Shown piece after piece: positions 2,524 through 21,935 of a stretch of 32,000 bases of DNA. Each line of letters begins with the position of its first letter. Position 1 is the stretch's first letter. The DNA lies in the NCBI GenBank assembly GCA_031316145.1, contig JALDQZ010000012.1, forward strand, positions 1 to 32,000, written 5' to 3'. The stretch comes from Candidatus Brocadiaceae bacterium (GTDB lineage: Bacteria; Planctomycetota; Brocadiia; Brocadiales; Brocadiaceae). The notes beneath the pieces are model-generated. The model saw nothing but the letters and a program-made list of their open reading frames with translations, ran no database searches and had not been told where the DNA came from. The position numbers and the translations under genes were made by a program.

Positions 2524-3834
2524 TTAAAACTGGTAATTAAAGTTTATGGCCATTAGATAGTCAATAGAGTCGTATCTCCCATCGATAGATCCCTGTAACT
2601 CATCTCCTACAGAGTTAGTAATCCTTCTGTTTTCATACACGGCTATTCCGGAGGCAAAGTCTATCCATTTGTTCATTTTCCCCCCCCAGCGATATTCAAA
2701 CCCGGTAAACACTGCATGCCTGCTGCTCATGGGGATAGATGGCTCAAAGGTATCACTTGGTACAGGGGATTCATGAAATGCATAACCTCCTCGTAATTTT
2801 ATGGTTTCATTCAGCAGGTATTCTCCTCCAAGGGCAAATCCCAGAGTATTGTGCCAGTTTCGAACATCCTCATTGCCTCCATCGAGAATGGGGTTTGATG
2901 GTGCAAAATCGAATCTTAGCACATCAAACCTCGTCCAATTAGTCCACTGAACGTCTGCCTCTACACTCCATCGCTCCCGGTGTTTATATGCATAACCTAA
3001 AATAAGTATTTCAGGAAGCGTAAGGGTAGTTCTTGCTTTTGTAGAGAATGATTCTCCGCCAAATGCTTCTGCGGTTGCTCCGCTCAGATTGGAAAACTTT
3101 AGAGATCCTTTTGTGTCAATATCTGCTTTGCTTCGGAATGAAATACCAATAGTGTGTTGGGGTGTAATGTTGTAGAGTATCCCAATGTTGTACCCAACAC
3201 CATCGCCGTGAACATCATCAAGATCCTGAAATCCGTCCGGGGTTGTTGTGTCTTGAGGGGTGCCAGTTAAGGAAGCATTAAGAAGGCCTACGTTTACACG
3301 TTTTTCCACATCAGACTTGGCGTAGTAGTAATCAAGGCCTGCACCGATAGAAAGAAATGAGAATGGTTTAAAGGTAATGGTAGGGTTAACATTGAGAATA
3401 GCCAAATTAAAATCGGTCACTACGTATCTTGAAAACCCGTCTTCTTCCCAGTTGCCTCTCAAACCATAAGGTGCAGAAATACCAATTCCTGTGGCTAATT
3501 TATCCTCTATGAGCGGGCAGGCAAAAAAAAGATTTGGTATGGTGTTTATCCCCGTGCCCATATCCTCATGTATGCCGTTTCCATGGTACTCTACTTTGGG
3601 AATGACAAAGCTGGCGCCTGTGGAGATTTGCGGTCTTTTTAACTGAGTAAGTCCGGCAGGATTAAATATAATTGCAGATGCGTCATCTGCTCGGGCAACA
3701 AAGGCGTTTGCCTGTGCTAATCCTACGGCGCTGAAAGACGGACTATGGAATCCGGAGGCGATCTGTGCTGAGATATCCATTTCATGAACGAAGTACGATA
3801 CGAGGAAAACAAAAACTAGAAAGAGTTGTTTCAT
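2524..3834 (-). CDS. Outer-membrane hydrophobic-compound / long-chain fatty acid channel, OMPP1/FadL/TodX family
   Basis: N-terminal signal peptide. Family-typical N-terminal segment AVGLAQANAFVARADDASAIIFNPAGL. Alternating beta-strand pattern and a C-terminal aromatic end NFNYQF. Confidence 0.8.
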   Translation of the reverse strand: MKQLFLVFVFLVSYFVHEMDISAQIASGFHSPSFSAVGLAQANAFVARADDASAIIFNPAGLTQLKRPQISTGASFVIPKVEYHGNGIHEDMGTGINTIPNLFFACPLIEDKLATGIGISAPYGLRGNWEEDGFSRYVVTDFNLAILNVNPTITFKPFSFLSIGAGLDYYYAKSDVEKRVNVGLLNASLTGTPQDTTTPDGFQDLDDVHGDGVGYNIGILYNITPQHTIGISFRSKADIDTKGSLKFSNLSGATAEAFGGESFSTKARTTLTLPEILILGYAYKHRERWSVEADVQWTNWTRFDVLRFDFAPSNPILDGGNEDVRNWHNTLGFALGGEYLLNETIKLRGGYAFHESPVPSDTFEPSIPMSSRHAVFTGFEYRWGGKMNKWIDFASGIAVYENRRITNSVGDELQGSIDGRYDSIDYLMAINFNYQF

Positions 3835-4178
3835 TTTACTTAGATTTCCTTTCTGAAAAACTTTTTCGGCACATGAGGATTATTAAATAGGAAAAAGCAT
3901 TTACTCTGTGGTCCATGTATTTGAGAAATGGGTAAAATTGGTGAAATAATTAAAAAAAATGCTTTTACTTACGATAAGATACATAAAAAAGGTGTTTTTA
4001 TAAAAAAGTTATGAATGCGAAAATTGTATATACCTGTTGCAGGAAGTCCCAACGAATGAACTTAGCAAATTAAACACCAATAAATTTTGAGAATGTATGA
4101 TAATCTGTATGTGTTTTGCGTGAAAATGCTAACACCTCCATTCGGGGTACAGCATTATACGTTCTAAGAATAGTTTCA

Positions 4179-4216
4179 GTTTTATTTTTCACCATGATTG
4201 TTTTATTTTTCACCAT
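4179..4216. repeat. Two perfect 17-bp direct repeats (gttttatttttcaccat) with 21-bp period
   Basis: Copies at 4179-4195 and 4200-4216, followed by a partial third copy (atttttca). They lie in the divergent fadL-like / KS intergenic region. Confidence 0.6.
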
Positions 4217-4393
4217 TTTCATTTTTCATACTTTTGTTGGGTTGTAACAACAAAAAAATGTGCTATGGCACACCTGTGTATATGTCAGGCAAGTATGTCA
4301 TGAAATATTCTTCTATTTACATGAGAAATTGATAAAACTTCTATTGCGATGAAAATAAATAGCTTATGATTCTTTTTTAATAGTGTATGTTTT

Positions 4394-4408
4394 TGGCAGG
4401 GTTTTTTC
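4394..4408 (+). promoter_or_regulatory. Weak sigma-54 -24/-12-like element (TGGCAG-N5-TTTC)
   Basis: Spacing is correct relative to the TGGCAC-N5-TTGC consensus and the GG doublet is present, but the -12 GC doublet is degenerate. It sits about 200 bp upstream of the KS-like start. An NtrC-type activator is encoded nearby, and I found no good sigma-70 hexamers in this gap. Confidence 0.2.
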
Positions 4409-4456
4409 TTATATATCTATCAGGAATTTCAAAATCACGTAAGGTTTACGCCTGTT

Positions 4457-4469
4457 TGCATGCCATGCA
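4457..4469. promoter_or_regulatory. 13-bp perfect palindrome TGCATG-C-CATGCA (possible operator or RNA hairpin)
   Basis: Read directly from the sequence. Flanked by the partially complementary cctgt/acagg. It lies 143 bp upstream of the KS-like ATG. Confidence 0.25.
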
Positions 4470-4611
4470 CAGGTAGACAGGGTGGGTTTGATTCGGTGAT
4501 GGATTTTTGTTGTTGATGGAGAGGAAAGAGAGACATTACTTTTGAAAGCAGTGAAAAGGCAAATTTTAACTGTATCCCTTTCAGGTAAGTAATTACCGGA
4601 GCAATTTTTGA

Positions 4612-5841
4612 ATGAAAAAGAAAATCGTGATAACCGGCATGGGTATGGTGAGTTCCCTTGGCATCGGTCTTGATGAAAACTGGGAACGGTATCTATCCGG
4701 GGTATCGGAGATTAAGGAATATGAAATAGAAGGTATGGATTTAGTTACCCATGCGGGAAAGGTTTCGGATGACAAACTCGGCCCGTATATTCCTGAAAAG
4801 AAAAAGGGTAAGATTGATCGTTTTACCTGCTTTGCCATGGTTGCCTCGAAAATGGCGCTTGAGGACGCAAAAATTGATGAAGGATTTGAGAGAGAAAAGA
4901 TAGGCGTTTTTATCGGTAGCGCCTTTAGTGGGTTGAATATCATAGAAAAACAGCTCAAGGTGCTCTATCGTGAAGGCCCAAGAAGAGTTCATCCCCTTTT
5001 AATGCAAAATAATATCACCAATGCCTCATCAGGTGAGGTCGCTATTGAGTTTACCCTGAAAGGTCCCAATATTGGATTTGCAAGCGGAGGATGTTCTGCT
5101 GGCTACAGCTTGATTCAGGCATGTAATACCCTGCAGCTCCATGATATTGATGCCATAGTTGTTGGCGGGACTGAAGCTCCGTTGCTGCCCTATGTGTTTG
5201 CTGAATTAAAATCGAATGGTTTGTATCAAACAAACGGTTATGACCAAGACAAAGTGAGTCGTCCCTTTGATAGCGCGCGAAAAGGTTTTGTTCTCAGTGA
5301 GGGGTCCGGCGTGGTCATTTTGGAGACACTAAGAAGCGCGGAGAAAAGGGGCGCGGAAATATATGGAGAACTTGTAGGGTGTGGGGCTTCTTATGGGAAG
5401 AATAATTACACAAATCAACAAAACCACGGTTTTTTATCCAAGGTGGCCTGCATACAACAAGCGTTGGAGTCCGCGGCCATTCAGCCATCACAGGTAGAGT
5501 ATATAAACGCGAGCGGCATATCAGGGATAGAGGAAGACAGAGAAGAATCGGAGGTAATGCAAACGGTATTTGGAAGAGATGTCCAGAACATACCGGTAAG
5601 TTCGACGAAGGGCACTTTTGGTTACTCAATTGGCGCATCGGGTGCAATTGATGCGATCTTTTCATTATTGTCGTTAAAAAAACAAACATTGCCACAGACT
5701 CAGAATCTTGAGCATATTGATCCGTCATGTGGAACCATTCCTATTCTGAAAGAATCAATGGAAAAGCCGGTAAACATCATACTTTCAAATAACTTTGATT
5801 ATGCCGGCAATAATGTTTCGCTGGTATTTCGGCGTATTTAA
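4612..5841 (+). CDS. Beta-ketoacyl synthase-like protein (FabF fold) lacking both catalytic histidines (Cys/Ser/Tyr)
   Basis: Thiolase-fold KS motifs are present. Cys161 is kept in SGGCSAG (TGT 5092-5094). NASGISG replaces NAHGTST (Ser, AGC 5512-5514). SSTKGTFGYSIGASG replaces SSTKSMTGHLLGAAG (Tyr, TAC 5623-5625). The C-terminal FDYAGNN replaces FGFGGTN. Confidence 0.85.
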   Translation: MKKKIVITGMGMVSSLGIGLDENWERYLSGVSEIKEYEIEGMDLVTHAGKVSDDKLGPYIPEKKKGKIDRFTCFAMVASKMALEDAKIDEGFEREKIGVFIGSAFSGLNIIEKQLKVLYREGPRRVHPLLMQNNITNASSGEVAIEFTLKGPNIGFASGGCSAGYSLIQACNTLQLHDIDAIVVGGTEAPLLPYVFAELKSNGLYQTNGYDQDKVSRPFDSARKGFVLSEGSGVVILETLRSAEKRGAEIYGELVGCGASYGKNNYTNQQNHGFLSKVACIQQALESAAIQPSQVEYINASGISGIEEDREESEVMQTVFGRDVQNIPVSSTKGTFGYSIGASGAIDAIFSLLSLKKQTLPQTQNLEHIDPSCGTIPILKESMEKPVNIILSNNFDYAGNNVSLVFRRI

Positions 5842-5892
5842 TTGCTACATTTTTCGGCACAAAGGCAAAAAGGCGGAAGTCGCAAAGCACAA

Positions 5893-7137
5893 ATGAACAA
5901 ACTTACTAAAGAAAATAAGGTCGTTGTAACGGGGTTAGGGATCATTACTCCGATAGGGATTGGGGTTGATTCATTCTGGGATGCTGTCATTGCCGGAAAA
6001 TCCGGGATTTCATTGATCTCGCGGTTTGATATGGAAAATTATCCTACAAAGATTGCCGGAGAAATAAGGGATTTTTATCCTGAAAACTATATGTCTGAGG
6101 AACTGAAGAATTTTTTATGCAGAAGTTCTCAACTTGGAGTGGCAGCGGCTCAAATGGCATTGGATGATGCACGGTTAAATCTTTCCAATGTAAGGAATAG
6201 TAGTATTGGGATAACCATTGGATTGGGAGCTGAAACATTGTCCTACTACGATGAAAAAACGGCAATTGAGGAAAATAATTATACTTTGCGTTCAAATCCT
6301 CCCATAGAAAACAGGCATTTGACAAATATCATTTCCGATATTTTTCATCTTTCTGGTCAAAATGTTATTGTTGCAACGGCGTGTTCCAGTGGAAATCAGG
6401 CGATTGGTATTGCTCGAGACATGATTCAATCAGGTCAGGCAGACATCGTTCTGGCTGGCGGAGTTGAGGCGCCGATTTTTCCCCTGTATTTTGCGTCATT
6501 TTGCTCCTTGAGAATCATGTCGAAAAGAAACGATCAGCCTGAAAAGGCAAGCAGGCCGTTTGATAAGGAAAGGGATGGGTTTGTAATGGGTGAGGGCGCC
6601 GGGATATTGGTCATTGAGAGCGCTGAAAATGCGCACGAAAGGGGGGCGCCTATCTATGCTGAAATAGCGGGTTACGGCGCTACGAGTGACGCCTTTCACA
6701 TGACCATGCCTTCGAGGGATAGGAAAGAAATATGCAAGGCAATGCGTTCGGCAATACAGGATGCCGGTCTGGATATGAACGGCATTGACTATATCAATGC
6801 GCACGGGACATCAACACCGGCAAATGACAGTGGTGAAACGATGGCAATAAAAACCGTTTTTGGTGACAGGGCTTATGACATACCGGTAAGTTCAACGAAA
6901 TCAATGACAGGTCATTTAATTGGAGCTGCTGGCGCTGTAGAACTTATAACATGCATATTAGCAATGAAAAATTCTGTAATTCCGCCTACCATTAATTTAG
7001 AGCATCCAAGCCCTGATTGTGATCTGGACTATGTGGCTAATGAGGCGAGGGAAAAAGAAATTCGAACGGCTCTTTCGAATTCCTTTGGTTTTGGCGGAAA
7101 TAATTCGACCATTGTAGTAAAAAAAGTAATTCAATGA
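5893..7137 (+). CDS. fabF: Beta-ketoacyl-ACP synthase II (FabF-type), canonical Cys/His/His
   Basis: ATACSSG (Cys164, 6382-6384), NAHGTSTP (His304, 6802-6804), SSTKSMTGHLIGAAG (His341, 6913-6915) and NSFGFGGNN. I prefer the ATG at 5893 (MNKLTKENKVVVTGLG) to the TTG at 5842 used in the ORF track. Confidence 0.88.
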   Translation: MNKLTKENKVVVTGLGIITPIGIGVDSFWDAVIAGKSGISLISRFDMENYPTKIAGEIRDFYPENYMSEELKNFLCRSSQLGVAAAQMALDDARLNLSNVRNSSIGITIGLGAETLSYYDEKTAIEENNYTLRSNPPIENRHLTNIISDIFHLSGQNVIVATACSSGNQAIGIARDMIQSGQADIVLAGGVEAPIFPLYFASFCSLRIMSKRNDQPEKASRPFDKERDGFVMGEGAGILVIESAENAHERGAPIYAEIAGYGATSDAFHMTMPSRDRKEICKAMRSAIQDAGLDMNGIDYINAHGTSTPANDSGETMAIKTVFGDRAYDIPVSSTKSMTGHLIGAAGAVELITCILAMKNSVIPPTINLEHPSPDCDLDYVANEAREKEIRTALSNSFGFGGNNSTIVVKKVIQ

Positions 7138-7143
7138 TTAGGA

Positions 7144-7263
7144 ATTTTGAAACATGTTTAGTGTGCGCAAGCACATATTTCAAAATGGCGTGAAGCGACT
7201 ACATGAGTGTCGTTGTAGCCAATTTGTAAAAGTAGCTTCTGCCTGTGCTCGACGGACAGGCAG
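7144..7263 (+). other. Two stem-loops in the KS2-ACP spacer
   Basis: First structure: attttgaaa (7144-7152) pairs with tttcaaaat (7178-7186), enclosing an inner tgtgc-GCAA-gcaca hairpin (7162-7175). Second structure: ctgcctgt (7239-7246) pairs with acaggcag (7256-7263) around a 9-nt loop. Neither is followed by a U tract. Confidence 0.4.
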
Positions 7264-7310
7264 GATGCGCTTAACTAGAAAGGTAAAAATTTTTATAGGG
7301 AGAGAAAAAT

Positions 7311-7577
7311 ATGGATAATGTGACGGATAATGATATTAAGGAAAGGCTAAAAAAAATACTGGCAAAGGAACTGAAGATGGAGCCTGAGGATATTTCCGAT
7401 GATGCGCACATTACTGATGATATCGGAGTTGAATCTGCGGAAATGATTAATCTCTTATATGATATAGAAAGTGAGTTTAACATAGAAGTCTCTAATGAAG
7501 AGGCAAGTCAGAACTTAGTCATATGCAAAATGACAAATTTGATAAAAGAAAAAATGGAAATGAAGTCTGTAAAATAA
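7311..7577 (+). CDS. Acyl carrier protein, divergent (GVESAE instead of GxDSL)
   Basis: An 88-aa acidic protein. DDIGVESAEMINLLYDIESEF aligns to AcpP [20 protein letters not shown], with the putative phosphopantetheine Ser42 at 7434-7436. Good RBS (gggagag). Confidence 0.8.
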   Translation: MDNVTDNDIKERLKKILAKELKMEPEDISDDAHITDDIGVESAEMINLLYDIESEFNIEVSNEEASQNLVICKMTNLIKEKMEMKSVK

Positions 7578-7599
7578 ATTTAACGCATAGGAGGAATTT

Positions 7600-7713
7600 C
7601 AAAGCGAGAGATCGCTTTGCTGACCCCTTATTTCATTCAGGGCTATGGCTTATTCTCAATGACAAAAATCAGGGAAAATGCCATTGAGGGTAAGGGATGA
7701 TGAAGCGATCTCT
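7600..7713 (+). other. Structured ACP-radical SAM spacer: local hairpin plus an 11-nt long-range complement
   Basis: Hairpin caaagcga-gaga-tcgctttg (7600-7619). The segment agagatcgctt (7607-7617) is perfectly complementary to aagcgatctct (7703-7713), so the two pairings are mutually exclusive. Confidence 0.35.
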
Positions 7714-7782
7714 TTTCAATTTTCTTGGCGGTCTCTGTGGTTAATTTTTTGATAATGACTTTTGTTTTTTAAGGGGCACAAA

Positions 7783-9567
7783 ATGATTTGTTCACGGGGC
7801 ATGGACATACTGCTTTGGAATTCTTTTATGGGCAAGGCCTATTCTGTCAGTGACTGTTTTAAAGAAAATGGCATTGGGTTGCTGGTCAGGGCATGTAAAG
7901 ACGCAGGTTTTTCCATGACGGTTGAAGACCCTGCAAGGATTGATTTTTATTCGTCATTTACAAAAAATGAACTTGAACCGGAGCTTTCAAGGCTCTCAGC
8001 GCATGTGTTTGGCAAGAAAAATGGTGAAGATAGCGCGTCATTACGCAAGGAGTGGGATTCTCTTCAAGAGAATCTCTCTTGTGCCATCAAAGGAAAAATG
8101 GAGGAATATCTCAATAGTCTTGCAAAAAAAGTGCGTGATGAACAGGTAAAAGTGCTGGGGATTAAGACCTGGCTGGGAGATAGATTTACGTACTCCGAGG
8201 AGCTCACCCGAAAGGTAAACCAACTGAGCCCGAATACCATCGTCATTGCCGGCGGTCCACAGGTCAATCAATTCAAAATCCATGCGCTTGAAGAAAGCCC
8301 TTTTGACTTCTGCATAGATGTTGAGGGGGAAACAACATTGACCAAAATTGTGGCTATGGTAAAAGAAATGTATGGGAGGGGTTGTAAAAAGGTAGAAGTA
8401 ATCAACAGGATAACTGAGCTTGCAAAGACCGGTGAACTGCAAAACCTTATTTACCGGGACGCTGATAATACCATAAGAGAATCAACGATCAGACGATTGC
8501 CCTTAAACAAAAAAACTTTTCCCCTCTATGAAAAAGAAGATGGAAAGGCAGATATCGCGGTAATTAATGAATCTTCGGGCTGCTATTATGGAAAGTGTGG
8601 CTTTTGTTCCCATCCAAACATTACCGGGAAATATCAAACCAGGGATGTGGACATTACCCTTCAGGAGATAAAAGAGAACATTCAAAAATATAGTATCGGA
8701 CTCTTCCGGTTTGCGGGATCTGTTACCCCAGCTTCTCTGGGCAGGAAGATTGCCAATGCAATAGTAAAAGAAGGATTGCATATTGAGTATTCCATGTTTG
8801 TCAGGGCTGAAAATAGAGCAAAGGCCCGAATTACTGAACTGATCAATACGTACGAGGAAATGATTCGTTCCGGACTTCGGGCCGTTTTCATGGGTGTTGA
8901 GGCTGTGGACAAAAAGCTCCTTTCAGAGAGCATGCAGAAAGGAAGTTCCATTGCAGACATGTATTATACCATCAAGGCCCTGAAACAGGCATCCTATAAT
9001 CAGGGAATGCCTGTTGATGTAGGAGTAAGTTTTATTTATCCGTGCCCGATTCCTTCAAATACTGGAACAACTCATGAAAAGGTGTTAGAAAAAAATTTGT
9101 GTTTCCTGCGCTCATTAAAAATCGAGAATTTTATGCCGGATTCCGTGCTTATCACCCCGGGTGTGCCTCTTCCCCTGACAGCATGGCAATTAAAGCCAAA
9201 ACAGTTCGGTTTTGATCTGCCTGAAGATTATGTTCAAAAAATTATACGGTATGAGTATGAACTCACAAAGGACCCAAGTGTATGGCCAGATCTGGATATC
9301 ACTTCAAACGGAATCAGGTTTAAGGATATGTTGAAGATGTCAGGGCAGATGGAAAAGAAGGTCAGGAAAATGGGGTATACGGTAAATGTGTCTGACGAAC
9401 ATTGTCTGGCTGCAAGAAGTTCCGGTTTTGTCGGGCAGAAAGGATTAGAAGAATTTAAGTTAAAGAGTGACATGGCATTACTTACCACCGATTATCGCTT
9501 CCTGAGAGAGGTGTATAACAAAATAAATTCATACAGCAGGGCGCTGGCTGAGAAAAATAATTCATAG
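7783..9567 (+). CDS. Radical SAM enzyme with N-terminal cobalamin-binding-like domain (class B-like) and non-canonical CX4CX2C cluster motif
   Basis: The N-terminal Rossmann-like segment IVIAGGPQVNQF...DFCIDVEGETTLTKIV resembles B12-binding radical SAM domains. Cluster motif GCYYGKCGFCSH (Cys codons at 8581, 8596, 8605). I saw no SPASM-type C-terminal Cys pattern. The ATG at 7783 has an aagggg RBS, whereas the track ORF starts at TTG 7762. Confidence 0.8.
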   Translation: MICSRGMDILLWNSFMGKAYSVSDCFKENGIGLLVRACKDAGFSMTVEDPARIDFYSSFTKNELEPELSRLSAHVFGKKNGEDSASLRKEWDSLQENLSCAIKGKMEEYLNSLAKKVRDEQVKVLGIKTWLGDRFTYSEELTRKVNQLSPNTIVIAGGPQVNQFKIHALEESPFDFCIDVEGETTLTKIVAMVKEMYGRGCKKVEVINRITELAKTGELQNLIYRDADNTIRESTIRRLPLNKKTFPLYEKEDGKADIAVINESSGCYYGKCGFCSHPNITGKYQTRDVDITLQEIKENIQKYSIGLFRFAGSVTPASLGRKIANAIVKEGLHIEYSMFVRAENRAKARITELINTYEEMIRSGLRAVFMGVEAVDKKLLSESMQKGSSIADMYYTIKALKQASYNQGMPVDVGVSFIYPCPIPSNTGTTHEKVLEKNLCFLRSLKIENFMPDSVLITPGVPLPLTAWQLKPKQFGFDLPEDYVQKIIRYEYELTKDPSVWPDLDITSNGIRFKDMLKMSGQMEKKVRKMGYTVNVSDEHCLAARSSGFVGQKGLEEFKLKSDMALLTTDYRFLREVYNKINSYSRALAEKNNS

Positions 9568-9588
9568 TTTAAAAAATGCATATCTAAA

Positions 9589-9615
9589 AAGGCACAAAGA
9601 CAGCGGGAACAAAGG
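9589..9615. repeat. Left imperfect inverted repeat flanking the four-helix-bundle cassette
   Basis: aaggcaca (9589-9596) and ggaacaaagg (9606-9615) recur as reverse complements at 9966-9973/9989-9996 and 9977-9986. Confidence 0.55.
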
Positions 9616-9623
9616 AGCAAAGG

Positions 9624-9961
9624 ATGATAAGGAGTTATAGGGATCTAAAAATACGGTAGTATATTCGATAACAAAGTTATTGCCAAAAGAGGAGTTATAT
9701 GGATTGGTATCCCAAGTCAGGAAAAGTGCCGTTTCTATGCCAAGTAATATTGCAGAGGGTTACGGAAGAAACTCTACCAATGAGTATATTCGATTTCTCC
9801 AAATATCGAGTGGCTCTTTGTATGAATTACAAACTCAACTTTTGATTTGTTTAAAATTAAGATACTTATCAAAAGAAACATTTGAAAGCACGTATGAGAA
9901 GAGCAGAGAAATAGAAAGAATATTTAGCCGCTTAATAAAAAAATTGGATAAAAACAATTAA
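9624..9961 (+). pseudogene. Four-helix-bundle protein of the 23S rRNA intervening-sequence (S23-like, PF05635-type) family, disrupted near the 5' end
   Basis: The family core is AVSMPSNIAEGYGRNSTNEYIRFLQISSGSLYELQTQL. The ATG at 9624 gives the family-typical MIRSYRDLKI and then a stop at 9657. Helix 1 resumes in another frame (VVYSITKLLPKEELYGL), which implies a small deletion plus a frameshift. Only a TTG-initiated 93-aa remnant (9680-9961) is open. Confidence 0.65.
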
Positions 9962-9963
9962 AC

Positions 9964-9996
9964 TCTGTGCCTTCTGCCTTTGTTCCTCTGTGCCTT
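9964..9996. repeat. Right imperfect inverted repeat flanking the cassette (contains ctgtgcctt twice)
   Basis: tgtgcctt occurs at 9966-9973 and 9989-9996, and cctttgttcc at 9977-9986. These are reverse complements of the motifs at 9589-9615. Confidence 0.55.
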
Positions 9997-10074
9997 AATA
10001 GCTGCGATATTTCAAATTTTTCAACAAAGTTTATTGTTACTTTTTGAACTCCTTTCTTTATACAGATACATCTC

Positions 10075-11331
10075 ATGATGAAAAGACGAGTGGTGATTAC
10101 CGGTCTGGGGATATTGGCCCCGAATGGAATTGGAAAAGAGGCTTACTGGGACGCAATCATCAATGGTCGATCAGGAATAAACAGAATTTCCTCGTTTGAT
10201 CCTTCTTCTTTCACGACTCAGATTGCTGGTGAGGTGGAAAATTTTGATCCAAAAGACTATGTTGATTCAAGGATGGTGGCTCGATGTGGGAGATTTACCC
10301 ATTTTGGTATTGCAGCCTCAAGAATGGCAACTGCTGATGCCGGTATAGACTTCAGCAAGGAAAACAAGGAGAGATGTGGTGTCTGTTTTGGCACCACATT
10401 AGGCCCGAATAATGATGTGTATGAAACACAGCACAGGAAATTTATAAGTTCTGGTCCTCTGTCTGTGGGACGTCTTACACCAGTTGAGATTACACCGCAT
10501 GTGACGACGGGCTATATCTGTTCAGATCTTCATATTGCCGGGCCGAATTCTACGCTTACTTCAGGATGTTCAACCGGGCTCGATGTGATGGGTTGGGGGC
10601 ACAAAATGATACAACAGGGGAAGATCGATGTTGCGGTTATCGGGTGCGCAGATACGCCAATCTTTCCGTTTATTTTGTCTGCTTTATGTAACCTGGGAAT
10701 TCTTTCCAGGAGTAATAAGGAGCCAGAAAAGGCCTCAAGGCCATATGACAAAAGACGTGATGGCATGGTGCTCAGTGAAGGTGGTGTTTCAATTGTGCTG
10801 GAGGAATTACATCATGCCCTGGATAGGGGCGCGGATATCTATGCCGAGGTATTGTCCTTTGCCTCTACCTGCGATGCTCAGGATATCGTGAATGCTGATA
10901 CCGGCGGGCAGGCTCTGATTTCCGCAATGGAAGAGGTTTTGGTGAGCGGCAGAGTTGGAAAAGAGGAGATAGATTATATTTGTGCCCACGGAAATAGCAT
11001 GCCTTCCTATGATATTGCAGAAACAAATGCCTTTAAGGCCTTCTTTGGTGAGCGTTCGTACAGAATTCCTGTAAGTTCCATTAAATCCATGACTGGTCAA
11101 TCATTTGCTGCCGGAGGCGGGTTTCAGGTGGTGGCAACGAGCCTTAGTCTTAAAAATGGGTTTGTTCCTCCCACCATTAATCTGGACGAACCAGATCCTC
11201 TCTGTGACCTTGATTACGTACCCCATGAAGCCAGACGGTTTTCCATGGAAACCGCCCTGATAAATAGTCATAGTGTTGGAAATACCCATGCAGCTCTTGT
11301 GTTGCGAAGATTTTCTGGAGAAGGAAGGTAA
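10075..11331 (+). CDS. Beta-ketoacyl synthase paralogue with Cys/His/Gln triad
   Basis: TSGCSTG (Cys165, 10567-10569), CAHGNS (His305, 10987-10989), SSIKSMTGQSFAAGG (Gln342, CAA 11098-11100, at the second His position). The C-terminal NSHSVGNTH replaces NSFGFGGTN. Confidence 0.85.
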   Translation: MMKRRVVITGLGILAPNGIGKEAYWDAIINGRSGINRISSFDPSSFTTQIAGEVENFDPKDYVDSRMVARCGRFTHFGIAASRMATADAGIDFSKENKERCGVCFGTTLGPNNDVYETQHRKFISSGPLSVGRLTPVEITPHVTTGYICSDLHIAGPNSTLTSGCSTGLDVMGWGHKMIQQGKIDVAVIGCADTPIFPFILSALCNLGILSRSNKEPEKASRPYDKRRDGMVLSEGGVSIVLEELHHALDRGADIYAEVLSFASTCDAQDIVNADTGGQALISAMEEVLVSGRVGKEEIDYICAHGNSMPSYDIAETNAFKAFFGERSYRIPVSSIKSMTGQSFAAGGGFQVVATSLSLKNGFVPPTINLDEPDPLCDLDYVPHEARRFSMETALINSHSVGNTHAALVLRRFSGEGR

Positions 11332-13901
11332 TGACTATGTTCCAGGCAACCTACATTTTGATAAGTTTGTGTATTGGAGGCCTTGGGATATTTGTGTTCC
11401 TGAAAGATCCAAGAAACAGTATTAATAAAAGATTTTTTCTCTACACATTGGTGATAGCAGTATGGGTATTTTCTATTAATCTTACCCTTCTAGCAAAAGA
11501 TACAACGATAGCGACTTCTAGACTAAGAATTGTTTTTTCTGTAGCTTCTCTTATGGGACCAAGTTTTTTTTTCTTTTCATCGGTATTTCCGGACCGAAAA
11601 GAAAGAACTTTTCAAAGATATCTGTGTCTTTTGTTCTTTGCAGCAAGTATCATTTTCATATGTACTTCCCCCTCATTAGTGAAAAAATCGGCTTTTGAAG
11701 GCGATAAAATACGTGCTGAATATGGTTCCCTTTTCATCCTGTTTTGGATTCACCTTTTAAGCTGTATGGGATATTCTTTCTACATCCTTTACAAGAAAAT
11801 CCGTTGGGCTTACGGCGTTACGAGATTACAGATTCAATATGTATTTTTTGGAATAGTGTTATTTGTTTTATGTGCTTTTATTACAAATTTTCTCTTTCCA
11901 TTGTTTGGTTTGTGGCAGGCTGAACAGTATGTCCCACTGACAGCCATTCCCATTCCGATAATGATTGCGATTGCGATTGTAAAGTATCACCTCATGGATA
12001 TTACCGTGGTGCTGAGGAAGAGCACGATGTATGCTGTTCTGACGGTCGTCCTGAGTTTTATCTATATTTTTGTTTGGGTAATTGTGGGTAACCTGTTGAA
12101 GATACCAGAATATAAAGAAGCTGTTACTGCTGTTGTTTCCACATCGGTGATGGTCTTTACTTTTGTTTTAACCGGAGAATCAATCCAGTATTTTGTTGAA
12201 AAGACCTTGTTTCGGACCAAATACAGTAGCTCAAAGATCCTGAGTGATTCTACGGCAATACTTTCATCCATTCATGATTTGCCGGGACTTCTTCATTCTG
12301 CGATCCAATATTTATATGATTCTGTAGGTATGGAGAAGATAAGTGTATTTCTCCGGGATGAAACACACAGTCATTATACCCTGAGGGCTTCAATAAAATT
12401 TCCGATAGATGCAAAATCTATTATTCACTGCGATAACGCCATTGCTACCAGGCTTTCTCAAAATAAAACGGTTTTATCACTTGATCAGTTAAAACGTTTC
12501 CATCGAAGAAAATCCGATGTCTTGTTGATAGACGTTTTGGAGCAACTTGACGTTGATAGCTGTATACCATTGGTTCAGGGGAATGATCTCATCGGTTTCA
12601 TTTTTTTGGGGAAAAAGATAAATAAAAAGGTTTATACACTGGATGATATCCAGATGTTTATTGCATTTTCCGGTCAAATGGCCCTGGCTGTAAGGAATGC
12701 CCACCTGTACCTGGGATTGAAAGAATCCATGGTCTACAGGGACAACATCCTTGAGAGTTTAAGAAGTGGAGTTATTGTTATAGATTATAATGAAGAGGTT
12801 ACCCTGATAAACTATGAGGCAAAAAAAATAATCGGGAAGAAAAATATGCAATCAAGCAAAACGATACTTGCTGCTCTTGGGAAAGACACATACCGGTTGC
12901 TGAGATATACGCTGAAAAACGATACAGAATTCAAAAATGTTGAAACCACTATCAAGAAAGGTGATGAAATAAATCTCTACAGCGTGACGACAACACAATT
13001 GAAAACGGAAACCGGTGAAAAACTTGGGGCTTTAATGATTCTTACCGATTTGACAGAACTGAAAATGCTTCAGGCTGAAAAACAACATTCCGAAAGATTG
13101 GCGTATCTTGGCACCCTTGCCGCGAATATTGCCCATGAGATAAGGAATCCACTTGTTCCTATCAACACCTATTTCCAGCTTCTTCCCCAAAAGAAGGGAG
13201 ATGAAAAATTTCATACGGAATTTCGAACGTTAGCGCTCAATGAAATAGGCAGGATCAACAGAATCATTGAAGAGATGTTGGACCTGGCAAAACCTTCCAA
13301 TCCTATTTTACAACCGATAAATCCTCACCGTGTGATAATGGAAACCATAAAATTACTCAGAGATACTGTATCAGAGAAGGATATTGAAATAGTTACAGAA
13401 TTAAACGAAATAAACTGTCAGCTTTGTGCCGATGAAGATAAGGTGCGGCAGGTCATGGTCAACATTTTGCAAAACAGCATTGAAATCCTGCCAAAAAATG
13501 GGCATATTCAGGTAAGCACAATCTTGATAGATGGCCTTTCTTATTTTAAGAAAAAGGCGAAAAAACACCCTAGTAGCATTTTCTTTTCCTTTGTTCCCTC
13601 AGTGTTACATGACGAAAATAAACAGTTTTTTGTAATGAAGGTATCCGATAATGGCAAAGGTATTTCGGCAGAAAAGATGCAGTATATTTTTGAACCGTTT
13701 TTCACGGATAAAAATAAAGGAACAGGACTTGGATTGGCAGTGGTATACAGAATCGTAAAGGATCATGAAGGTTGTATTTATGTTGAAAGTCAGGAAGACA
13801 AGGGAACAGACTTTTATATTTGCTTTCCAATAAACCAGGTCAATGTGTACCTGTTTCCTGCCGATCAAGAAAAAACACTGGAAAGTTCTCACTCCTTATA
13901 A
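11331..13901 (+). CDS. Polytopic membrane sensor histidine kinase (about 8-9 TM N-domain, GAF, PAS, HisKA, HATPase)
   Basis: Hydrophobic N-terminal 290 aa. H-box ANIAHEIRNPL, N-box VNILQNSIE, G1 SDNGKGI, G2 GTGLGLAV. The start ATG overlaps the KS3 stop (TAATG at 11329-11333) and is preceded by ggagaaggaagg. Confidence 0.88.
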   Translation: MTMFQATYILISLCIGGLGIFVFLKDPRNSINKRFFLYTLVIAVWVFSINLTLLAKDTTIATSRLRIVFSVASLMGPSFFFFSSVFPDRKERTFQRYLCLLFFAASIIFICTSPSLVKKSAFEGDKIRAEYGSLFILFWIHLLSCMGYSFYILYKKIRWAYGVTRLQIQYVFFGIVLFVLCAFITNFLFPLFGLWQAEQYVPLTAIPIPIMIAIAIVKYHLMDITVVLRKSTMYAVLTVVLSFIYIFVWVIVGNLLKIPEYKEAVTAVVSTSVMVFTFVLTGESIQYFVEKTLFRTKYSSSKILSDSTAILSSIHDLPGLLHSAIQYLYDSVGMEKISVFLRDETHSHYTLRASIKFPIDAKSIIHCDNAIATRLSQNKTVLSLDQLKRFHRRKSDVLLIDVLEQLDVDSCIPLVQGNDLIGFIFLGKKINKKVYTLDDIQMFIAFSGQMALAVRNAHLYLGLKESMVYRDNILESLRSGVIVIDYNEEVTLINYEAKKIIGKKNMQSSKTILAALGKDTYRLLRYTLKNDTEFKNVETTIKKGDEINLYSVTTTQLKTETGEKLGALMILTDLTELKMLQAEKQHSERLAYLGTLAANIAHEIRNPLVPINTYFQLLPQKKGDEKFHTEFRTLALNEIGRINRIIEEMLDLAKPSNPILQPINPHRVIMETIKLLRDTVSEKDIEIVTELNEINCQLCADEDKVRQVMVNILQNSIEILPKNGHIQVSTILIDGLSYFKKKAKKHPSSIFFSFVPSVLHDENKQFFVMKVSDNGKGISAEKMQYIFEPFFTDKNKGTGLGLAVVYRIVKDHEGCIYVESQEDKGTDFYICFPINQVNVYLFPADQEKTLESSHSL

Positions 13902-13915: not shown

Positions 13916-14734
13916 TTACAATCCAATAATAGCTATGCGGGCATTGTCCGCGGCTGTAATAATCTCCTCAGTATCCAGAATGAGTGTTTTCCCCGCTTCA
14001 AGGGCAAGGACCGAAGCAGAAGAATCCTTCAGTGTTTTGATGGTTTCAAGTCCGACAGTAGGAATATCGAATCGTGGGTCGAATTTCTGTTTGCTGACCT
14101 TGATGACGACGAGGTCGTTTCTTCCGAGACTTCCTCCTCTGCTGATGGTTTGATCAGTGCCTTCCAGGGCTTCTACCGCGACAATCACCTTTTCCTTAAG
14201 GACAATGCACTGTCCGATGCCAAGCCGTGCGATTTCTTTTGCAATGGGCCATCCGAAGTGGATGTCTTCCCATTCCCTTTCTGAAGGTTTTTTCCGGGTT
14301 AATATACCCGTTTGGGTAATCAGTTGCGGCACATAAAGGGTAGAGTTTTGCAGTATTATCCCATCTTTCAAAAGTTCATCAGCAACGGCTTCCAGTAAGG
14401 AATGGTCGTCTCTCCTCTTTACGTTTCTATACCAAAGATTGATGGTCCTTAAATCCGGTAGAAGACGGAGATTCCGCATGGATAAAAACATGTTGGTTTT
14501 TGTGAGTCCTCCCGCCATAACTGCCTTGGAGATGTGCTCCTGTTTAAAAATCTTGATGAGTTTCCCTATCTGGGCGACTCCCACCCAGTAAAGCCTTTCC
14601 ACATATTGTTCGATTTCCGGCGATGCTTCTCCTTCAATGCCGATGGCAATAATGGGAACCTTGTTATCAATTGCCCCTTTTGCAAACAGTATGGGAAATC
14701 TGCCGTTTCCTGCGATTAATCCGAGCTTTTCCAT
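13916..14734 (-). CDS. lpxI: LpxI-family UDP-2,3-diacylglucosamine hydrolase (DUF1009)
   Basis: N-terminal MEKLGLIAGNGRFPILFAKGA is typical of LpxI. Its size fits, and it lies immediately downstream of lpxD with a 19-nt overlap. Confidence 0.7.
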   Translation of the reverse strand: MEKLGLIAGNGRFPILFAKGAIDNKVPIIAIGIEGEASPEIEQYVERLYWVGVAQIGKLIKIFKQEHISKAVMAGGLTKTNMFLSMRNLRLLPDLRTINLWYRNVKRRDDHSLLEAVADELLKDGIILQNSTLYVPQLITQTGILTRKKPSEREWEDIHFGWPIAKEIARLGIGQCIVLKEKVIVAVEALEGTDQTISRGGSLGRNDLVVIKVSKQKFDPRFDIPTVGLETIKTLKDSSASVLALEAGKTLILDTEEIITAADNARIAIIGL

Positions 14735-15756
14735 TGATCTTCCAGTTGTTTTATGCGTTTTTCAAGCGATTTAATATGGTCTCTCATTTCGGGGAGTTTC
14801 TCTATGATTACATAACAACGCCGCATCCGCTGGATGGGGAGGGCCGGAGTTCCCAGATAGGTTGTATTGCTGGGGATGTCGTGGGCCACTCCAGAACGTC
14901 CGCCCACCACAACATTATCACCTATCGTGACATGTCCGATAATTCCGGCTCCGCCGGCAAGGGTAACATGCTTTCCTATCTTTGCGGTTCCTGCAATACC
15001 TACCTGTGAGACAATCAAAGAATTTTCACCTATTTCCACATTATGTGAAATAACAACCTGACTGTCAATCTTTGTGCCGCTCTTAATGATCGTTTTTCCC
15101 ATTGCGGCACGATTAATAGTTGTATTGGCGCCGATTTCCACATCGTCTTCTATTACGGCGATACCTACCTGTGGGATTTTGTAATAACGCTCTCCATCCG
15201 GGGCGTAGCCAAACCCACTGCTCCCAATGACCGTGTTGCTATGAATGTTTACTCGTTTACCAATTTTTGTATCGTCATAAATCACAACGTTTGGATAAAT
15301 AACCGTGTCATCGTCAATGGTACACTGGTTACCGACGAATGTGCCTGGACAAAGGACGACACGATTGCCAATTTGGGTATTTTCGCCGATGGTGACAAAC
15401 GCTTGGATAGAAATATCTTTGCCTAAGACGGCAGTCTTTGCGATGTGTGCAGAATCGTCAATGCCTGTCGCGTGTATGGGCTTTTCGTACATTAAAAGTT
15501 CCACGATCTGCGCAAAAGCAAGATAGGGATTGTTGCATACTAAAAGGTTTGCTTGCGCGTCTTTTAGTCTTGGGGAGACAATAATTGCGGAGGCCTTGGT
15601 ATCGTGAATTCTCTTTACATATTTTTCATTGGATATAAACGTTATAAATCCTGCCTGCGCTTCATTAATGCCCATGACACCGCGTATACGCGTGGCGGGA
15701 TCGCCCATAACTGAGCCGCCTACGTGGTCAGCGAGTTCCTGTAATGATTTTTCCAT
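14716..15756 (-). CDS. lpxD: UDP-3-O-acylglucosamine N-acyltransferase
   Basis: N-terminal LQELADHVGG...ITFISNEKY region followed by long hexapeptide (left-handed beta-helix) repeats and a C-terminal helical tail. Confidence 0.9.
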   Translation of the reverse strand: MEKSLQELADHVGGSVMGDPATRIRGVMGINEAQAGFITFISNEKYVKRIHDTKASAIIVSPRLKDAQANLLVCNNPYLAFAQIVELLMYEKPIHATGIDDSAHIAKTAVLGKDISIQAFVTIGENTQIGNRVVLCPGTFVGNQCTIDDDTVIYPNVVIYDDTKIGKRVNIHSNTVIGSSGFGYAPDGERYYKIPQVGIAVIEDDVEIGANTTINRAAMGKTIIKSGTKIDSQVVISHNVEIGENSLIVSQVGIAGTAKIGKHVTLAGGAGIIGHVTIGDNVVVGGRSGVAHDIPSNTTYLGTPALPIQRMRRCYVIIEKLPEMRDHIKSLEKRIKQLEDQWKSSD

Positions 15757-16684
15757 TATATGGAGCCTTTGTCACAAATCGTACGAGAATAAGGGTCGCG
15801 AGTAAAAGACACCAGCTGAGCATGCCGGTGACTATTTCGTTGTCGCCAAAAAACCAATGCGGTTTTTTATAAACATCGTCAAAAAAGAATTTATTTGACT
15901 TAAGGAGAAAAATCCAGCCGGCATGAAGCCCTATGGAACAATACAGGGATTGTGTTCTCAGAAAGGCATAGGATAGAACAATGCCAGCGCAGAATAGTCC
16001 GATAACGGAAGGTAAAATAGTGGTAAATTTCAGGATAATCGATGCAAATGAATGATACACAACCACAAAACCAACAAAAGGTTGTATGCCAGGAGCTACC
16101 GGTAATTTCGCACTGAAGAAGTGCAGGAAAGAATACATAAGGCTACTGATGCAAATTGCGGGCATTACTTTCATATCTCTCAACAGATTTTGAAAGATAA
16201 AGCCCCGAAAAAAAACTTCTTCAATGCATGCGACAAGGCCAGCGACCATCATTATTTCTAAAAGATGAAATAGTATGTTTCCAAAAGACTTAAGATCCGT
16301 TTCCAGTTTCTGTGTGCCACTAATGTATAAGGCGATTATACAGAAAATAAACATGCCCGTGCTCAAGAAAATGCCTGTTTTGAGCTGGTCTAGCCACCCT
16401 TTTATCGGTTTTATTCCAATAGCGGCAAGGGTGTCAACCACAAAGGACTTTCTTAAGAAAAAAATTAAAAAAAGAGCGGTAAGCAGCATAATCCGGCGCA
16501 TAACCCTCGCAAAATTATACTGTCCTTCTTCATAATGGAGTATATCAGCCAGAGAAGAGCTTGTGGATAGCAGTGAGTCAAGAACGGCCTTAATAAAAGG
16601 CGCAATAAGGCTGCTCAAAAACAAGACAAGAAAGAATAAAAGGAAGATTTTCTTGTAGTGTCTTGTCGTATTGAATGGGTTCAT
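15728..16684 (-). CDS. CPBP (CAAX/Abi) family intramembrane glutamic endopeptidase
   Basis: Polytopic membrane protein. Motifs IEEVFFRGFIF, YSFLHF and GLHAGW. I prefer the start at 16684 because a near-consensus promoter ends 7 nt upstream of it. The track ORF extends to 16837. Confidence 0.65.
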   Translation of the reverse strand: MNPFNTTRHYKKIFLLFFLVLFLSSLIAPFIKAVLDSLLSTSSSLADILHYEEGQYNFARVMRRIMLLTALFLIFFLRKSFVVDTLAAIGIKPIKGWLDQLKTGIFLSTGMFIFCIIALYISGTQKLETDLKSFGNILFHLLEIMMVAGLVACIEEVFFRGFIFQNLLRDMKVMPAICISSLMYSFLHFFSAKLPVAPGIQPFVGFVVVYHSFASIILKFTTILPSVIGLFCAGIVLSYAFLRTQSLYCSIGLHAGWIFLLKSNKFFFDDVYKKPHWFFGDNEIVTGMLSWCLLLATLILVRFVTKAPYNGKIITGTR

Positions 16685-16691
16685 GATGGAG

Positions 16692-16720
16692 ATAATAGTG
16701 CTGTTAAAAGAAGTTGTCAA
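16692..16720 (-). promoter_or_regulatory. Sigma-70-type promoter (TTGACA-17 bp-TATTAT) for the CPBP-lpxD-lpxI operon, possibly leaderless
   Basis: The minus strand reads TTGACA acttcttttaacagcac TATTAT ctccatc ATG. The -10 hexamer ends 7 nt before the ATG at 16684. Confidence 0.5.
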
Positions 16721-16863
16721 CTGAAAATCTGTTTTATAACAAGAACTAATGTTTACAAGAGATGCGTTACATAAGAGTAGAGAGAAAAGAAGGATTATTT
16801 TTGTTGGTTTCCTGTAAATAGGCCTGCTTTCTGCCATTGCGAACTACGGCATATTTATATTTG

Positions 16864-19783: not shown

Positions 19784-20422
19784 ATGGCAAAATATTATCC
19801 AATATATCTACACATTAGAGACAAGAAATGCGTGGTGGTAGGGGGCGGAAAGGTTGCATGGCGCAAGGTATGCAGTTTAAGAGAGGCAGGAGCAAGGGTA
19901 ACGGTCGTGGCTCCTGATATATGTGCTGAGCTGAGTCGGGAGGAAGGGGTTGAAATCATAAAACAGAAGTATGATGAATCATTTCTTAAAGAGGCGATGA
20001 TTGTCATCGCTTCAACAGATGATGAACAGGTGAATACAACCGTTTATTCTGATGCAATGAAAAGAGGCTTATTGGTCAATGTTGTTGACAGACCGGAATT
20101 TTGTTCTTTTATCGTTCCTTCCTCAATAGAACGGGGTGACCTTAGAATTAGTATTTCAACGGGAGGGGCGAGCCCTGCCCTGGCGAGGAATATACGCAAA
20201 TCTTTGGAAGGGCAGTTTGGGAAAGAATATTGCGAGTTTACAAGGCTTTTATCAGAGATGCGAAAAAAGGTTCTTGTAGAAGTACGGAATGAATCAATAA
20301 GACGAGATATTCTGCAGCGAATAGCAGGGTTGGATTTTCTGGAGGTTATAAAAAAAGATGGTCCCGACGTAGCACAACGAAGGATGTTAGATGTTATTTC
20401 TGAGAAATGTCCCAAAGAATAA
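19784..20422 (+). CDS. sirC: Precorrin-2 dehydrogenase / sirohydrochlorin ferrochelatase (CysG N-terminal / SirC-like)
   Basis: NAD-binding VVVGGGKVAWRKVCSLREAGARVTVVAP. Also ISISTGGASPALARNIRKSLE. Confidence 0.8.
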   Translation: MAKYYPIYLHIRDKKCVVVGGGKVAWRKVCSLREAGARVTVVAPDICAELSREEGVEIIKQKYDESFLKEAMIVIASTDDEQVNTTVYSDAMKRGLLVNVVDRPEFCSFIVPSSIERGDLRISISTGGASPALARNIRKSLEGQFGKEYCEFTRLLSEMRKKVLVEVRNESIRRDILQRIAGLDFLEVIKKDGPDVAQRRMLDVISEKCPKE

Positions 20423-20457
20423 ACCAGGTATAGTGGTATCCTTGTTTTCATTTTTGC

Positions 20458-21485: not shown

Positions 21486-21497
21486 TTGGGGAATCAG

Positions 21498-21917: not shown

Positions 21918-21935
21918 GAACTGAGGGTTGATACT

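Follow-up and report, generated by a model that had tools for sequence, protein, structure and literature searches.

Gene Organization of the Locus

The 32,000-nt stretch considered here (the window; positions 1 to 32,000 of contig JALDQZ010000012.1, assembly GCA_031316145.1, from a Candidatus Brocadiaceae bacterium) carries genes for three ketosynthases (KS1, KS2 and KS3), an acyl carrier protein (ACP), a radical S-adenosylmethionine (SAM) enzyme (rSAM) and a transmembrane histidine kinase (HK7TM). An original prediction, made from the sequence, had proposed the ketosynthases, the ACP and rSAM as a candidate module for ladderane synthesis. As described below, the cluster looks like a variant of the pairing of a synthase with a sensor kinase, in which a ketosynthase and a radical SAM enzyme are coupled to sensor kinases in a conserved and apparently undescribed combination.

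Genes were called from the listing of open reading frames (ORFs) together with Pfam and NCBIfam profile searches of the window, and the Pfam searches covered its main non-overlapping ORFs. KS1 (4612–5841) has ketoacyl-synt N- and C-terminal domains. KS2 (5893–7137) is a canonical FabF whose ORF opens, at TTG 5842, immediately 3′ of KS1. These two genes are followed by ACP (7311–7577; PP-binding, 34.8 bits), rSAM (7783–9567) and KS3 (10075–11331), a FabF-like ketosynthase with a Cys-His-Gln triad. All five are on the plus strand, and both their positions and the identities originally given to them were borne out. HK7TM (11331–13901, plus strand), a PrsK-like histidine kinase of HisKA_7TM-GAF-PAS-HisKA-HATPase architecture, overlaps the stop of KS3 by 1 nt and lies inside the span 4612–13901 originally delimited for the cluster. 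The original gene list did miss one gene, which lies between rSAM and KS3 (9680–9961, plus strand) and encodes a four-helix-bundle protein of the "23S rRNA intervening sequence protein" family (PF05635, 102 bits). This gene is truncated at its 5′-end, the match starting at profile position 23, and an in-frame stop lies upstream at about 9638. The gap between rSAM and KS3 is about 40 bp in most other Brocadiales loci, and a few reach 130–280 bp. The extra gene looks like an insertion remnant and is probably not part of the system.

The flanks comprise a FadL channel, kinases and a sigma-54 activator, as had been described. HK0 (38–1099, plus strand) is a soluble AtoS-like histidine kinase with a HATPase_c domain. 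Its best NCBIfam match is AtoS, below the cut-off, and it has zero hydrophobic segments and hence no predicted transmembrane (TM) segment. It overlaps, in the same direction, the gene for an AtoC/PrsR-like sigma-54-dependent response regulator (1096–2472, plus strand) with receiver, AAA+ sigma-54 activator (Sigma54_activat, 223 bits) and HTH_8 domains, which scores 470 bits against AtoC (cut-off 714). A FadL/TodX-type outer-membrane channel for hydrophobic compounds is encoded on the opposite strand (2524–3834, minus strand; Toluene_X, 242 bits). Between the divergent FadL and KS1 genes lies an AT-rich intergenic region of 777 bp (3835–4611).

The order KS1-KS2-ACP-rSAM-KS3-kinase is found in at least eight other Brocadiales contigs, and partially on three contigs that end early. 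Because the same order recurs in this way, the five-gene arrangement is no chance juxtaposition. No FabD, FabG, FabZ/FabA, FabI or phosphopantetheinyl transferase was detected by Pfam in the main ORFs of the window. As had been noted, the reductive loop is absent and KS and ACP are not part of a self-sufficient type II fatty acid synthase (FAS II) operon within the 32 kb. The original assignment to an anammox genome also holds, the Rieske/cytochrome b/multihaem operon being recovered at the domain level. Because rSAM, KS1 and KS3 are 100% identical to proteins of a "Candidatus Brocadiaceae bacterium" metagenome-assembled genome (MAG) in NCBI and share at most 73% identity with proteins beyond it, the genome represents a divergent member of the Brocadiaceae.

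Ketosynthases and Acyl Carrier Protein

Residues are numbered according to Escherichia coli FabF, the sequence of which was verified against PDB alignments. When the ketosynthases are compared with the FabF equivalog model TIGR03150 (cut-off 493.75 bits), KS2 is the only one above the cut-off (514.3 bits), and KS3 and KS1 score 395.2 and 348 bits. KS2 has an intact Cys-His-His triad and 45% identity to E. coli FabF, and is nearer to canonical FabFs (401 bits) than to PDB 9s5h_B (342 bits). Judged by its sequence, KS2 is a bona fide FabF. None of the three ketosynthases is close to chains B or C of 9s5h (198–342 bits, compared with up to 401 bits for ordinary FabFs).

In the KS1 family (54 members, counting the window protein), the active-site Cys is kept beside a one-residue insertion in 53 members, and His303 is replaced by Ser in all of them. 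His340 has become Phe, Leu or Tyr (Tyr340 in the window protein). With Ser303 and Phe, Leu or Tyr at position 340, KS1 is therefore predicted to be unable to decarboxylate malonyl groups canonically, and its probable role is that of a partner subunit that does not decarboxylate. Among the family members found, the closest share 59–71% identity with it over the full length. Those that are named come from Brocadia, Brocadiaceae and Planctomycetota MAGs, apart from one fragment from Scalindua japonica, and the next matches beyond the family are ordinary FabFs with at most 40% identity. The fragment (P0174) is a 279-amino-acid, N-terminally truncated homologue with 63% identity, annotated as "Candidatus Scalindua japonica" and located on a 219-kb contig. 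No Scalindua homologues of rSAM or KS3 were seen alongside it, and it could be a pseudogene, a transfer or a contamination.

KS3 combines the Cys-His-Gln triad with N305, Q349 and a gating loop in which FGF is changed to HSV (H398-S-V). The signature C163, H303, N305, K335 and Q349 is present in all 73 Brocadiales-type sequences. Position 340 is Gln in 61 of these and His in 12, and outside Brocadiales it is Gln in 45 of 47 sequences. Since Cys, His and Lys are invariant while Gln and His alternate at position 340, KS3 is probably still catalytic. Homologues sharing the signature form a continuum at 46–53% identity, and on these sequence grounds KS3 is assigned to a distinct FabF-like Cys-His-Gln subfamily. 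Several of the nearest 50%-identity representatives of KS3 (P0361, P0362, P0366 and others) are about 800–870 amino acids long with two KS-like stretches. These proteins look like fused KS-KS didomains, possibly covalent pairs of a ketosynthase and a chain length factor (CLF).

In ACP, the Ser of the GVES sequence is aligned with that of GADS, the phosphopantetheine-attachment Ser of solved ACPs, and the protein scores under the acpP equivalog cut-offs.

Radical SAM Enzyme

The rSAM protein scores 29.8 bits against Pfam B12-binding, below the cut-off of 32.1, and 29.6 bits against Radical_SAM (cut-off 29.5). It is below the cut-off of every NCBIfam family. A profile search against PDB sequences gave weak matches to OxsB and TokK alone, and the fold search was more informative. 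The AlphaFold model (mean predicted local distance difference test score 91.6) has TsrM (E = 1.6e-16) and OxsB as its top fold matches, and also matches AprD4. AprD4 has been reported not to use cobalamin. The model supports a cobalamin-type (class B) fold consisting of an N-terminal Rossmann-like domain and a radical SAM barrel, an organization shared with TsrM, OxsB, HpnR and BchE. The enzyme differs from these class B enzymes in its low sequence identity (12–14%) and in its cluster motif, which is CX4CX2C (C267, C272 and C275) rather than CX3CX2C. All 14 sequences compared, with identities as low as 31%, keep these three Cys residues.

Distribution in Brocadiales

Relatives of rSAM were sought by an alignment scan of one genome per species for 185,579 species (GTDB species representatives), which gave 94 relatives in 75 loci, recovered down to 29% identity. 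The window proteins were then mapped onto these loci. In Brocadiales, the conserved unit consists of HK0 and/or the sigma-54 regulator, followed by rSAM, KS3 and HK7TM, with FadL located 5′ on the other strand. This unit extends to the deep-branching Anammoxibacter at 51–56% identity. The KS3-HK7TM pair is present in the Brocadiales loci that extend that far, with a gap of 10 bp in locus L003. HK0 orthologues are located 5′ of rSAM or KS1, and the sigma-54 regulator is immediately 5′ of one or the other in most of the loci. The FadL gene is 5′ on the opposite strand in most Brocadiales loci and also in the non-Brocadiales locus L082.

KS1-KS2-ACP, when present, sits between the regulator and rSAM, and occurs in a subset of loci only. 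It is absent from the locus in Kuenenia hertensis, Brocadia sapporoensis, B. pituitae, Jettenia ecosi, Loosdrechtia and Wunengus-like groundwater lineages. Because the long form, with KS1-KS2-ACP, is scattered over the tree of rSAM and KS3, the distribution suggests that KS1-KS2-ACP is an accessory module that has been lost repeatedly. The closed genomes of Jettenia, Loosdrechtia and B188, which do have rSAM, contributed no KS1 matches. No Scalindua or Kuenenia stuttgartiensis rSAM was among the 94 relatives, and protein searches, including those with KS3, agreed, although whole genomes were not searched.

Linkage to Sensor Kinases beyond Anammox Bacteria

Nine non-Brocadiales KS3 homologues, picked for long contigs alone, were looked up and correspond to eight independent loci. 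In all eight, the KS3-type gene is followed by a histidine-kinase gene at a distance of −10 to +97 bp. In seven of them this kinase has the HisKA_7TM-PAS-HisKA-HATPase architecture (PF16927), in most with GAF matches. These kinases align to residues 21–834 of HK7TM with 26–33% identity. A second GAF/PAS kinase and a hybrid kinase usually lie further downstream. Two of the KS3-type proteins looked up are named Tectimicrobiota and Methylomirabilota by NCBI. In L082 the order is FadL (minus strand), B12 rSAM, KS, an HpnR-like second rSAM, HK7TM and RR-HK (response regulator-histidine kinase), which is essentially the Brocadiales core. In L078, L079, L080 and L083, from several phyla, the ketosynthase is the sole enzyme in an operon of kinases. 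In L084 (1–3698), genes for an ABC exporter, a HlyD/AprE-type adaptor and a 443-amino-acid protein without a Pfam match are located directly 5′ of the KS3-kinase pair in the same orientation, an arrangement that would fit product export.

Kinases also adjoin rSAM homologues in at least six unrelated lineages. In 17 loci of Sporomusaceae, the operon runs from a kinase to a FeeM-like N-acyl-amino-acid-synthase domain fused to a cyclic nucleotide monophosphate-binding domain, and then to the rSAM homologue. In these operons (L057–L075, for example L064 7080–11734), the kinase is a PAS histidine kinase with about four TM segments, and the FeeM-like protein weakly matches the PEP-CTERM-associated acyltransferase family TIGR03694. 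The gene upstream of the rSAM homologue in Desulfatibacillum and in a Woesearchaeota MAG likewise encodes a FeeM-like protein (hhalign probability 95.6%), and a kinase is adjacent. A shared multi-TM sensor among the kinases beside distant rSAM homologues was considered and rejected, as these have 0 to 4 TM segments. The robust result is one of linkage: an acyl-thioester-using enzyme (KS3 or FeeM-like), the rSAM family and histidine kinases travel together.

Two further associations of the rSAM family were observed. In homologues with 42–44% identity, a class I SAM methyltransferase domain is fused C-terminally to rSAM (L030 9977–12568, from the Woesearchaeota MAG, and P0082, P0084 and P0088). 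The rSAM/KS module often comes with a further B12 radical SAM enzyme, rSAM2, which has about 460 amino acids (L038 13246–14649, L082 7288–8679, L076 2623–3996 and L027/L028 cluster 14). The rSAM2 proteins of L082 and L076 are HpnR-like (255–258 bits; 255 for L082), and the L038 copy scores far lower. In Anammoxibacter, too, such an additional B12 radical SAM enzyme is encoded 3′ of KS3, and rSAM2 appears to have been lost from Brocadiaceae. The possibility that rSAM2 of Anammoxibacter, L082 and L076 is the "ladder" enzyme of family TIGR04072 was rejected (66–92 bits, cut-off 360).

Comparison with Known Synthase-Sensor and Regulatory Systems

CqsA-CqsS, LuxM-LuxN and RpfF-RpfC are gene pairs of an autoinducer synthase and a membrane sensor kinase, and long-chain hydrophobic signals are known to pass through FadL-type channels. 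The cluster resembles these pairs in that an acyl-thioester-using enzyme is placed beside a histidine kinase with several TM segments and in that different taxa have kept the two together, the linked genes being co-inherited both in Brocadiales and in the eight other loci. It differs in that the enzymes are a FabF-like ketosynthase and a B12 radical SAM enzyme and in that the sensor is of the HisKA_7TM (PrsK-like) type.

HK7TM has about nine hydrophobic segments in residues 1–282, and its HisKA_7TM domain scores 40.7 bits (cut-off 28.6). A 7TM-type transmembrane kinase together with a sigma-54-dependent response regulator is also the composition of PrsK/PrsR, the regulatory system of PEP-CTERM/exosortase loci, for which the cue of PrsK was stated as unknown (Haft 2006). 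The similarity is weak, however: HK7TM scores 98 bits against TIGR02916 and the regulator 377 bits against TIGR02915, both under the equivalog cut-offs (300 and 502.6). Pfam searches of the window ORFs gave no sign of a PrsT, exosortase, PEP-CTERM or TPR partner. The literature searched on HisKA_7TM, on combinations of ketosynthase, kinase and autoinducer, and on antiSMASH ladderane reports in Brocadia gave no description of the KS3-kinase pairing. The joining of a ketosynthase subfamily to a PrsK-like 7TM kinase across phyla thus appears to be undescribed in that literature, and so does the constant placement of the rSAM family next to kinases and enzymes of acyl transfer.

Relation to Ladderane Biosynthesis

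The original prediction stated that no enzyme forming the fused cyclobutane rings had been demonstrated, and a 2026 review and a 2026 preprint agree that no ladderane-forming enzyme is known, attention being directed to Cluster I (kuste3603-3608). This cluster comprises amxACP, amxFabZ, an amxFabF2/amxFabFmut heterodimer, a phytoene-dehydrogenase homologue and a TIGR04072-type B12 radical SAM enzyme. In the pseudo-ketosynthase amxFabFmut, Val/Thr-Asn-Glu replaces Cys-His-His, and its gene is directly upstream of amxFabF2. The window cluster is similar in being an anammox FAS-like cluster with a dedicated ACP, a triad-defective ketosynthase gene 5′ of an intact FabF gene, and a B12-type radical SAM enzyme. 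No FabZ or phytoene-dehydrogenase domain was detected in the main ORFs of the window, and its radical SAM enzyme belongs to another family, scoring 54.3 bits against TIGR04072 (rSAM_ladder_B12; cut-off 360). The pseudo-ketosynthase replacements, of Cys by Val or Thr and of His by Asn, Glu or Cys, are found neither in KS1 (Cys/Ser303/Tyr340) nor in KS3 (Cys/His/Gln). The window module is, moreover, joined to kinases and is not universal in anammox bacteria.

A second small anammox cluster, kuste2802-2805 (a B12 radical SAM enzyme, FabF and a non-canonical "FabB"), was proposed by Rattray 2009 and gave no new products on expression in E. coli (Javidpour 2016). It resembles the window cluster in combining a B12 radical SAM enzyme and FabF with a non-canonical ketosynthase, but the published residues of Kuste2805 (Phe163/Asn298/Glu333) differ from the patterns of KS1 and KS3. 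The nearest Kuenenia locus recovered, that of K. hertensis, has only rSAM-KS3-kinase, and no K. stuttgartiensis protein is among the homologues. Identity of the cluster with kuste2802-2805 was rejected on the published active-site residues and the K. hertensis layout, not on direct sequence comparison. Three non-canonical K. stuttgartiensis ketosynthases are listed by Rattray 2009 (Table 2), and the remaining FabFs have conserved active sites. None of these non-canonical enzymes has the pattern of KS1 or of KS3, and neither a C-H-Q nor a C-S-x ketosynthase is listed. Because the residue patterns do not match and the remaining FabFs have conserved sites, the window cluster is none of the four described clusters.

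It is therefore very improbable that the cluster is a ladderane biosynthesis module in which the three ketosynthases build ACP-bound chains and rSAM introduces the cyclobutane rings. Such a role would accord with the origin of the genome from anammox bacteria, with FAS-like genes beside B12 radical SAM enzymes being the class of candidates under discussion, with the lack of a known ladderane cyclase and with the confinement of KS1 to Brocadiales. These points are opposed by the missing hallmarks of Cluster I, by the absence of KS1-KS2-ACP from the locus in Kuenenia, Jettenia, Loosdrechtia and several Brocadia species, by the lack of KS1 matches from the closed genomes mentioned above, and by the failure to recover rSAM or KS3 relatives from Scalindua or K. 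stuttgartiensis. The restriction to anammox bacteria implied by the original prediction does not hold either, as the core is found in Tectimicrobiota, Methylomirabilota and others. That prediction had proposed phyletic profiling and had named, as evidence against it, the wide occurrence of the five-gene arrangement in bacteria that make no ladderanes or branched lipids. The rSAM-KS3-kinase core does occur outside anammox bacteria, but the full five-gene set was not found there. The module is not shared by all ladderane producers and also occurs in other bacteria. A candidate that was attractive but misleading is thereby removed from ladderane research, for which Cluster I is the better target. 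The decision of the original prediction to leave the chemistry unassigned was sound.

Regulatory Sequences and Transcription

The FadL/KS1 intergenic region contains two tandem copies of a 21-nt unit (GTTTTATTTTTCACCAT...) at 4179–4220, which could be a putative regulator binding site. Weak −24-like TGGCA motifs are located near the repeat, at about 4250 and 4391; an example of such a weak site is TGGCAGGGTTTTTTCT, about 220 nt 5′ of KS1. An Rfam scan detected no cobalamin or SAM riboswitch and no other Rfam element in this intergenic region. No convincing intrinsic terminator was found in any gap between the cluster genes, and because of this the region is compatible with a single transcript.

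Proposed Model for a Lipid-Derived Signal and Alternative Explanations

The most economical explanation of the linkage, though a tentative one, would be a system in which KS3, with rSAM where present, makes a hydrophobic, acyl-derived molecule that is sensed by the co-transcribed PrsK-like kinase. In this model, HK0, the sigma-54 regulator, KS1, KS2 and ACP where present, rSAM, KS3 and the 7TM kinase would be transcribed as one long operon, with FadL divergent. KS3 would condense acyl thioesters to a beta-keto-type hydrophobic product, which the cobalamin-type rSAM would modify by C-methylation or C–C bond formation. The product would then partition into the membrane and serve as the cue for the multi-TM sensor domain of HK7TM, and HK0 and the sigma-54 regulator would relay the signal to targets at other genomic sites. 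FadL may provide passage for the hydrophobic molecule across the outer membrane. Where they are carried, KS1 and KS2 would form a KS/CLF-like heterodimer and, together with the dedicated ACP, provide a special acyl-ACP as precursor, and any reduction steps would be borrowed from the housekeeping FAS II. The role of KS1, KS2 and ACP as an optional precursor module is proposed because of the analogy with amxFabFmut/amxFabF2, in which the pseudo-ketosynthase gene is also directly upstream. The position of KS1 directly 5′ of an intact FabF gene mirrors that gene order and speaks for the model.

Several points weigh against this model. Everything beyond the linkage of the genes is inference, and the adjacency of the kinases fits equally a sensor that controls a lipid-modifying enzyme. 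The kinases beside distant rSAM homologues have mixed sensor domains, and KS1 keeps its Cys, unlike classical CLFs, so that the analogy with KS/CLF is not a given. In addition, searches upstream of KS1, rSAM and KS3, in the window and in about 30 orthologous loci, gave weak −24-like matches but no sigma-54 promoter whose GG-N10-GC core is intact, and no regulatory site of any kind was found that ties the sigma-54 regulator to the operon.

The main alternative, which is unlikely, is remodelling of membrane lipids under sensor control, including the mid-chain methyl branching that the original prediction had raised as another possible role. The kinases would sense the state of the membrane or an environmental cue and switch on KS3, rSAM and, where present, KS1, KS2 and ACP. 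Ordinary, non-ladderane chains would then be altered by mid-chain C-methylation, carried out by the class B enzyme, or by a change in chain length, in analogy to DesK/DesR-Des. The enzymes are indeed of the lipid type, LpxD and LpxI are encoded next door, and HK7TM, as a multi-TM sensor, is well placed for reading the state of the membrane. The HpnR-like rSAM2 proteins of related loci L082 and L076 belong to the hopanoid C-3 methylase family, and the fusion of some rSAM homologues to class I methyltransferase domains also points to methylation. 10-Methyl-C16 lipids are typical of Methylomirabilis, and one of the KS3-kinase loci comes from Methylomirabilota; in the literature search for a link to mid-chain methyl-branched lipids, these Methylomirabilis data were the only ones found. 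The occurrence of the ketosynthase as the only enzyme among kinases in L078, L079, L080 and L083 would nevertheless be unusual for a structural-lipid pathway, and neither acyltransferase genes nor genes for reductive steps are linked. Elsewhere, the enzymes that accompany the rSAM family are N-acyl amino acid synthases of the FeeM type, whose products are small molecules and not membrane lipids. K. stuttgartiensis reportedly makes 10-methylhexadecanoate, yet no rSAM homologue was recovered from it.

It is improbable that the cluster is a small secondary-metabolite cluster resembling a type II polyketide synthase (PKS) or FAS, with KS1, KS2 and ACP as a minimal KS-CLF-ACP cassette, rSAM and KS3 tailoring the product, and the regulators merely controlling the cluster. 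The product would then be a polyketide or an unusual fatty acid with an ecological role, such as an antibiotic, pigment or surfactant. The minimal cassette of type II PKS (KS-alpha, CLF and ACP) shares with the window the adjacent ketosynthase paralogues, of which one is catalytically incomplete, the ACP and the lack of reductive enzymes. The order of a His-less ketosynthase, a Cys-His-His ketosynthase and ACP recalls both such cassettes and the amxFabF heterodimer. The scores of the ketosynthases against type II PKS ketosynthases are substantial, and KS1 forms a lineage-restricted family. However, in CLF the active-site Cys is replaced by Gln, whereas KS1 keeps the Cys and loses both His residues. 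KS2 is a FabF by the NCBIfam cut-off, and the window has no linked gene for a cyclase, aromatase, ketoreductase, thioesterase or exporter. The cassette is also dispensable, the conserved unit rSAM-KS3-kinase having no ACP, and the joining of KS3 to a 7TM kinase in other phyla would be left unexplained.

If the product of the proposed synthase is indeed a signal, a cue would be named for a large family of orphan sensor kinases. The system could also be relevant to the control of aggregation or granulation in anammox bacteria, which is of importance in wastewater reactors. A broader generalization, which we regard as doubtful, is that FabF-like ketosynthases with the Cys-His-Gln triad, in many cases accompanied by a B12-type radical SAM enzyme, are the synthases of a novel class of lipid-derived signals read by PrsK-type 7TM kinases. 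Were this so, it would give the first clue to a ligand for the PrsK-type kinase family. In Brocadiaceae, the signal would feed through the sigma-54 regulator into a cell-density or aggregation response, and the FeeM-like acyltransferase/rSAM/kinase operons of Sporomusaceae and Desulfatibacillum would be variants of the same system.

Adjacent Genes

Directly downstream of HK7TM, the minus strand (13916–16837) encodes LpxI, LpxD and an Rce1-like CAAX/CPBP protease. An Rce1-like gene is also located 3′ of the kinase cascade in the Tectimicrobiota locus L079 (16143–16781), possibly by coincidence. Further downstream (19784–23688), a run of genes for a sirohaem-synthase-like NAD-binding protein, a small sulfite/nitrite-reductase-like 4Fe-4S protein, a DsrE-like protein, a PALP protein (CysM/CysK-type), a JAB/Mec-type protease and TusA resembles a gene set for sulfur-carrier-dependent cysteine biosynthesis.

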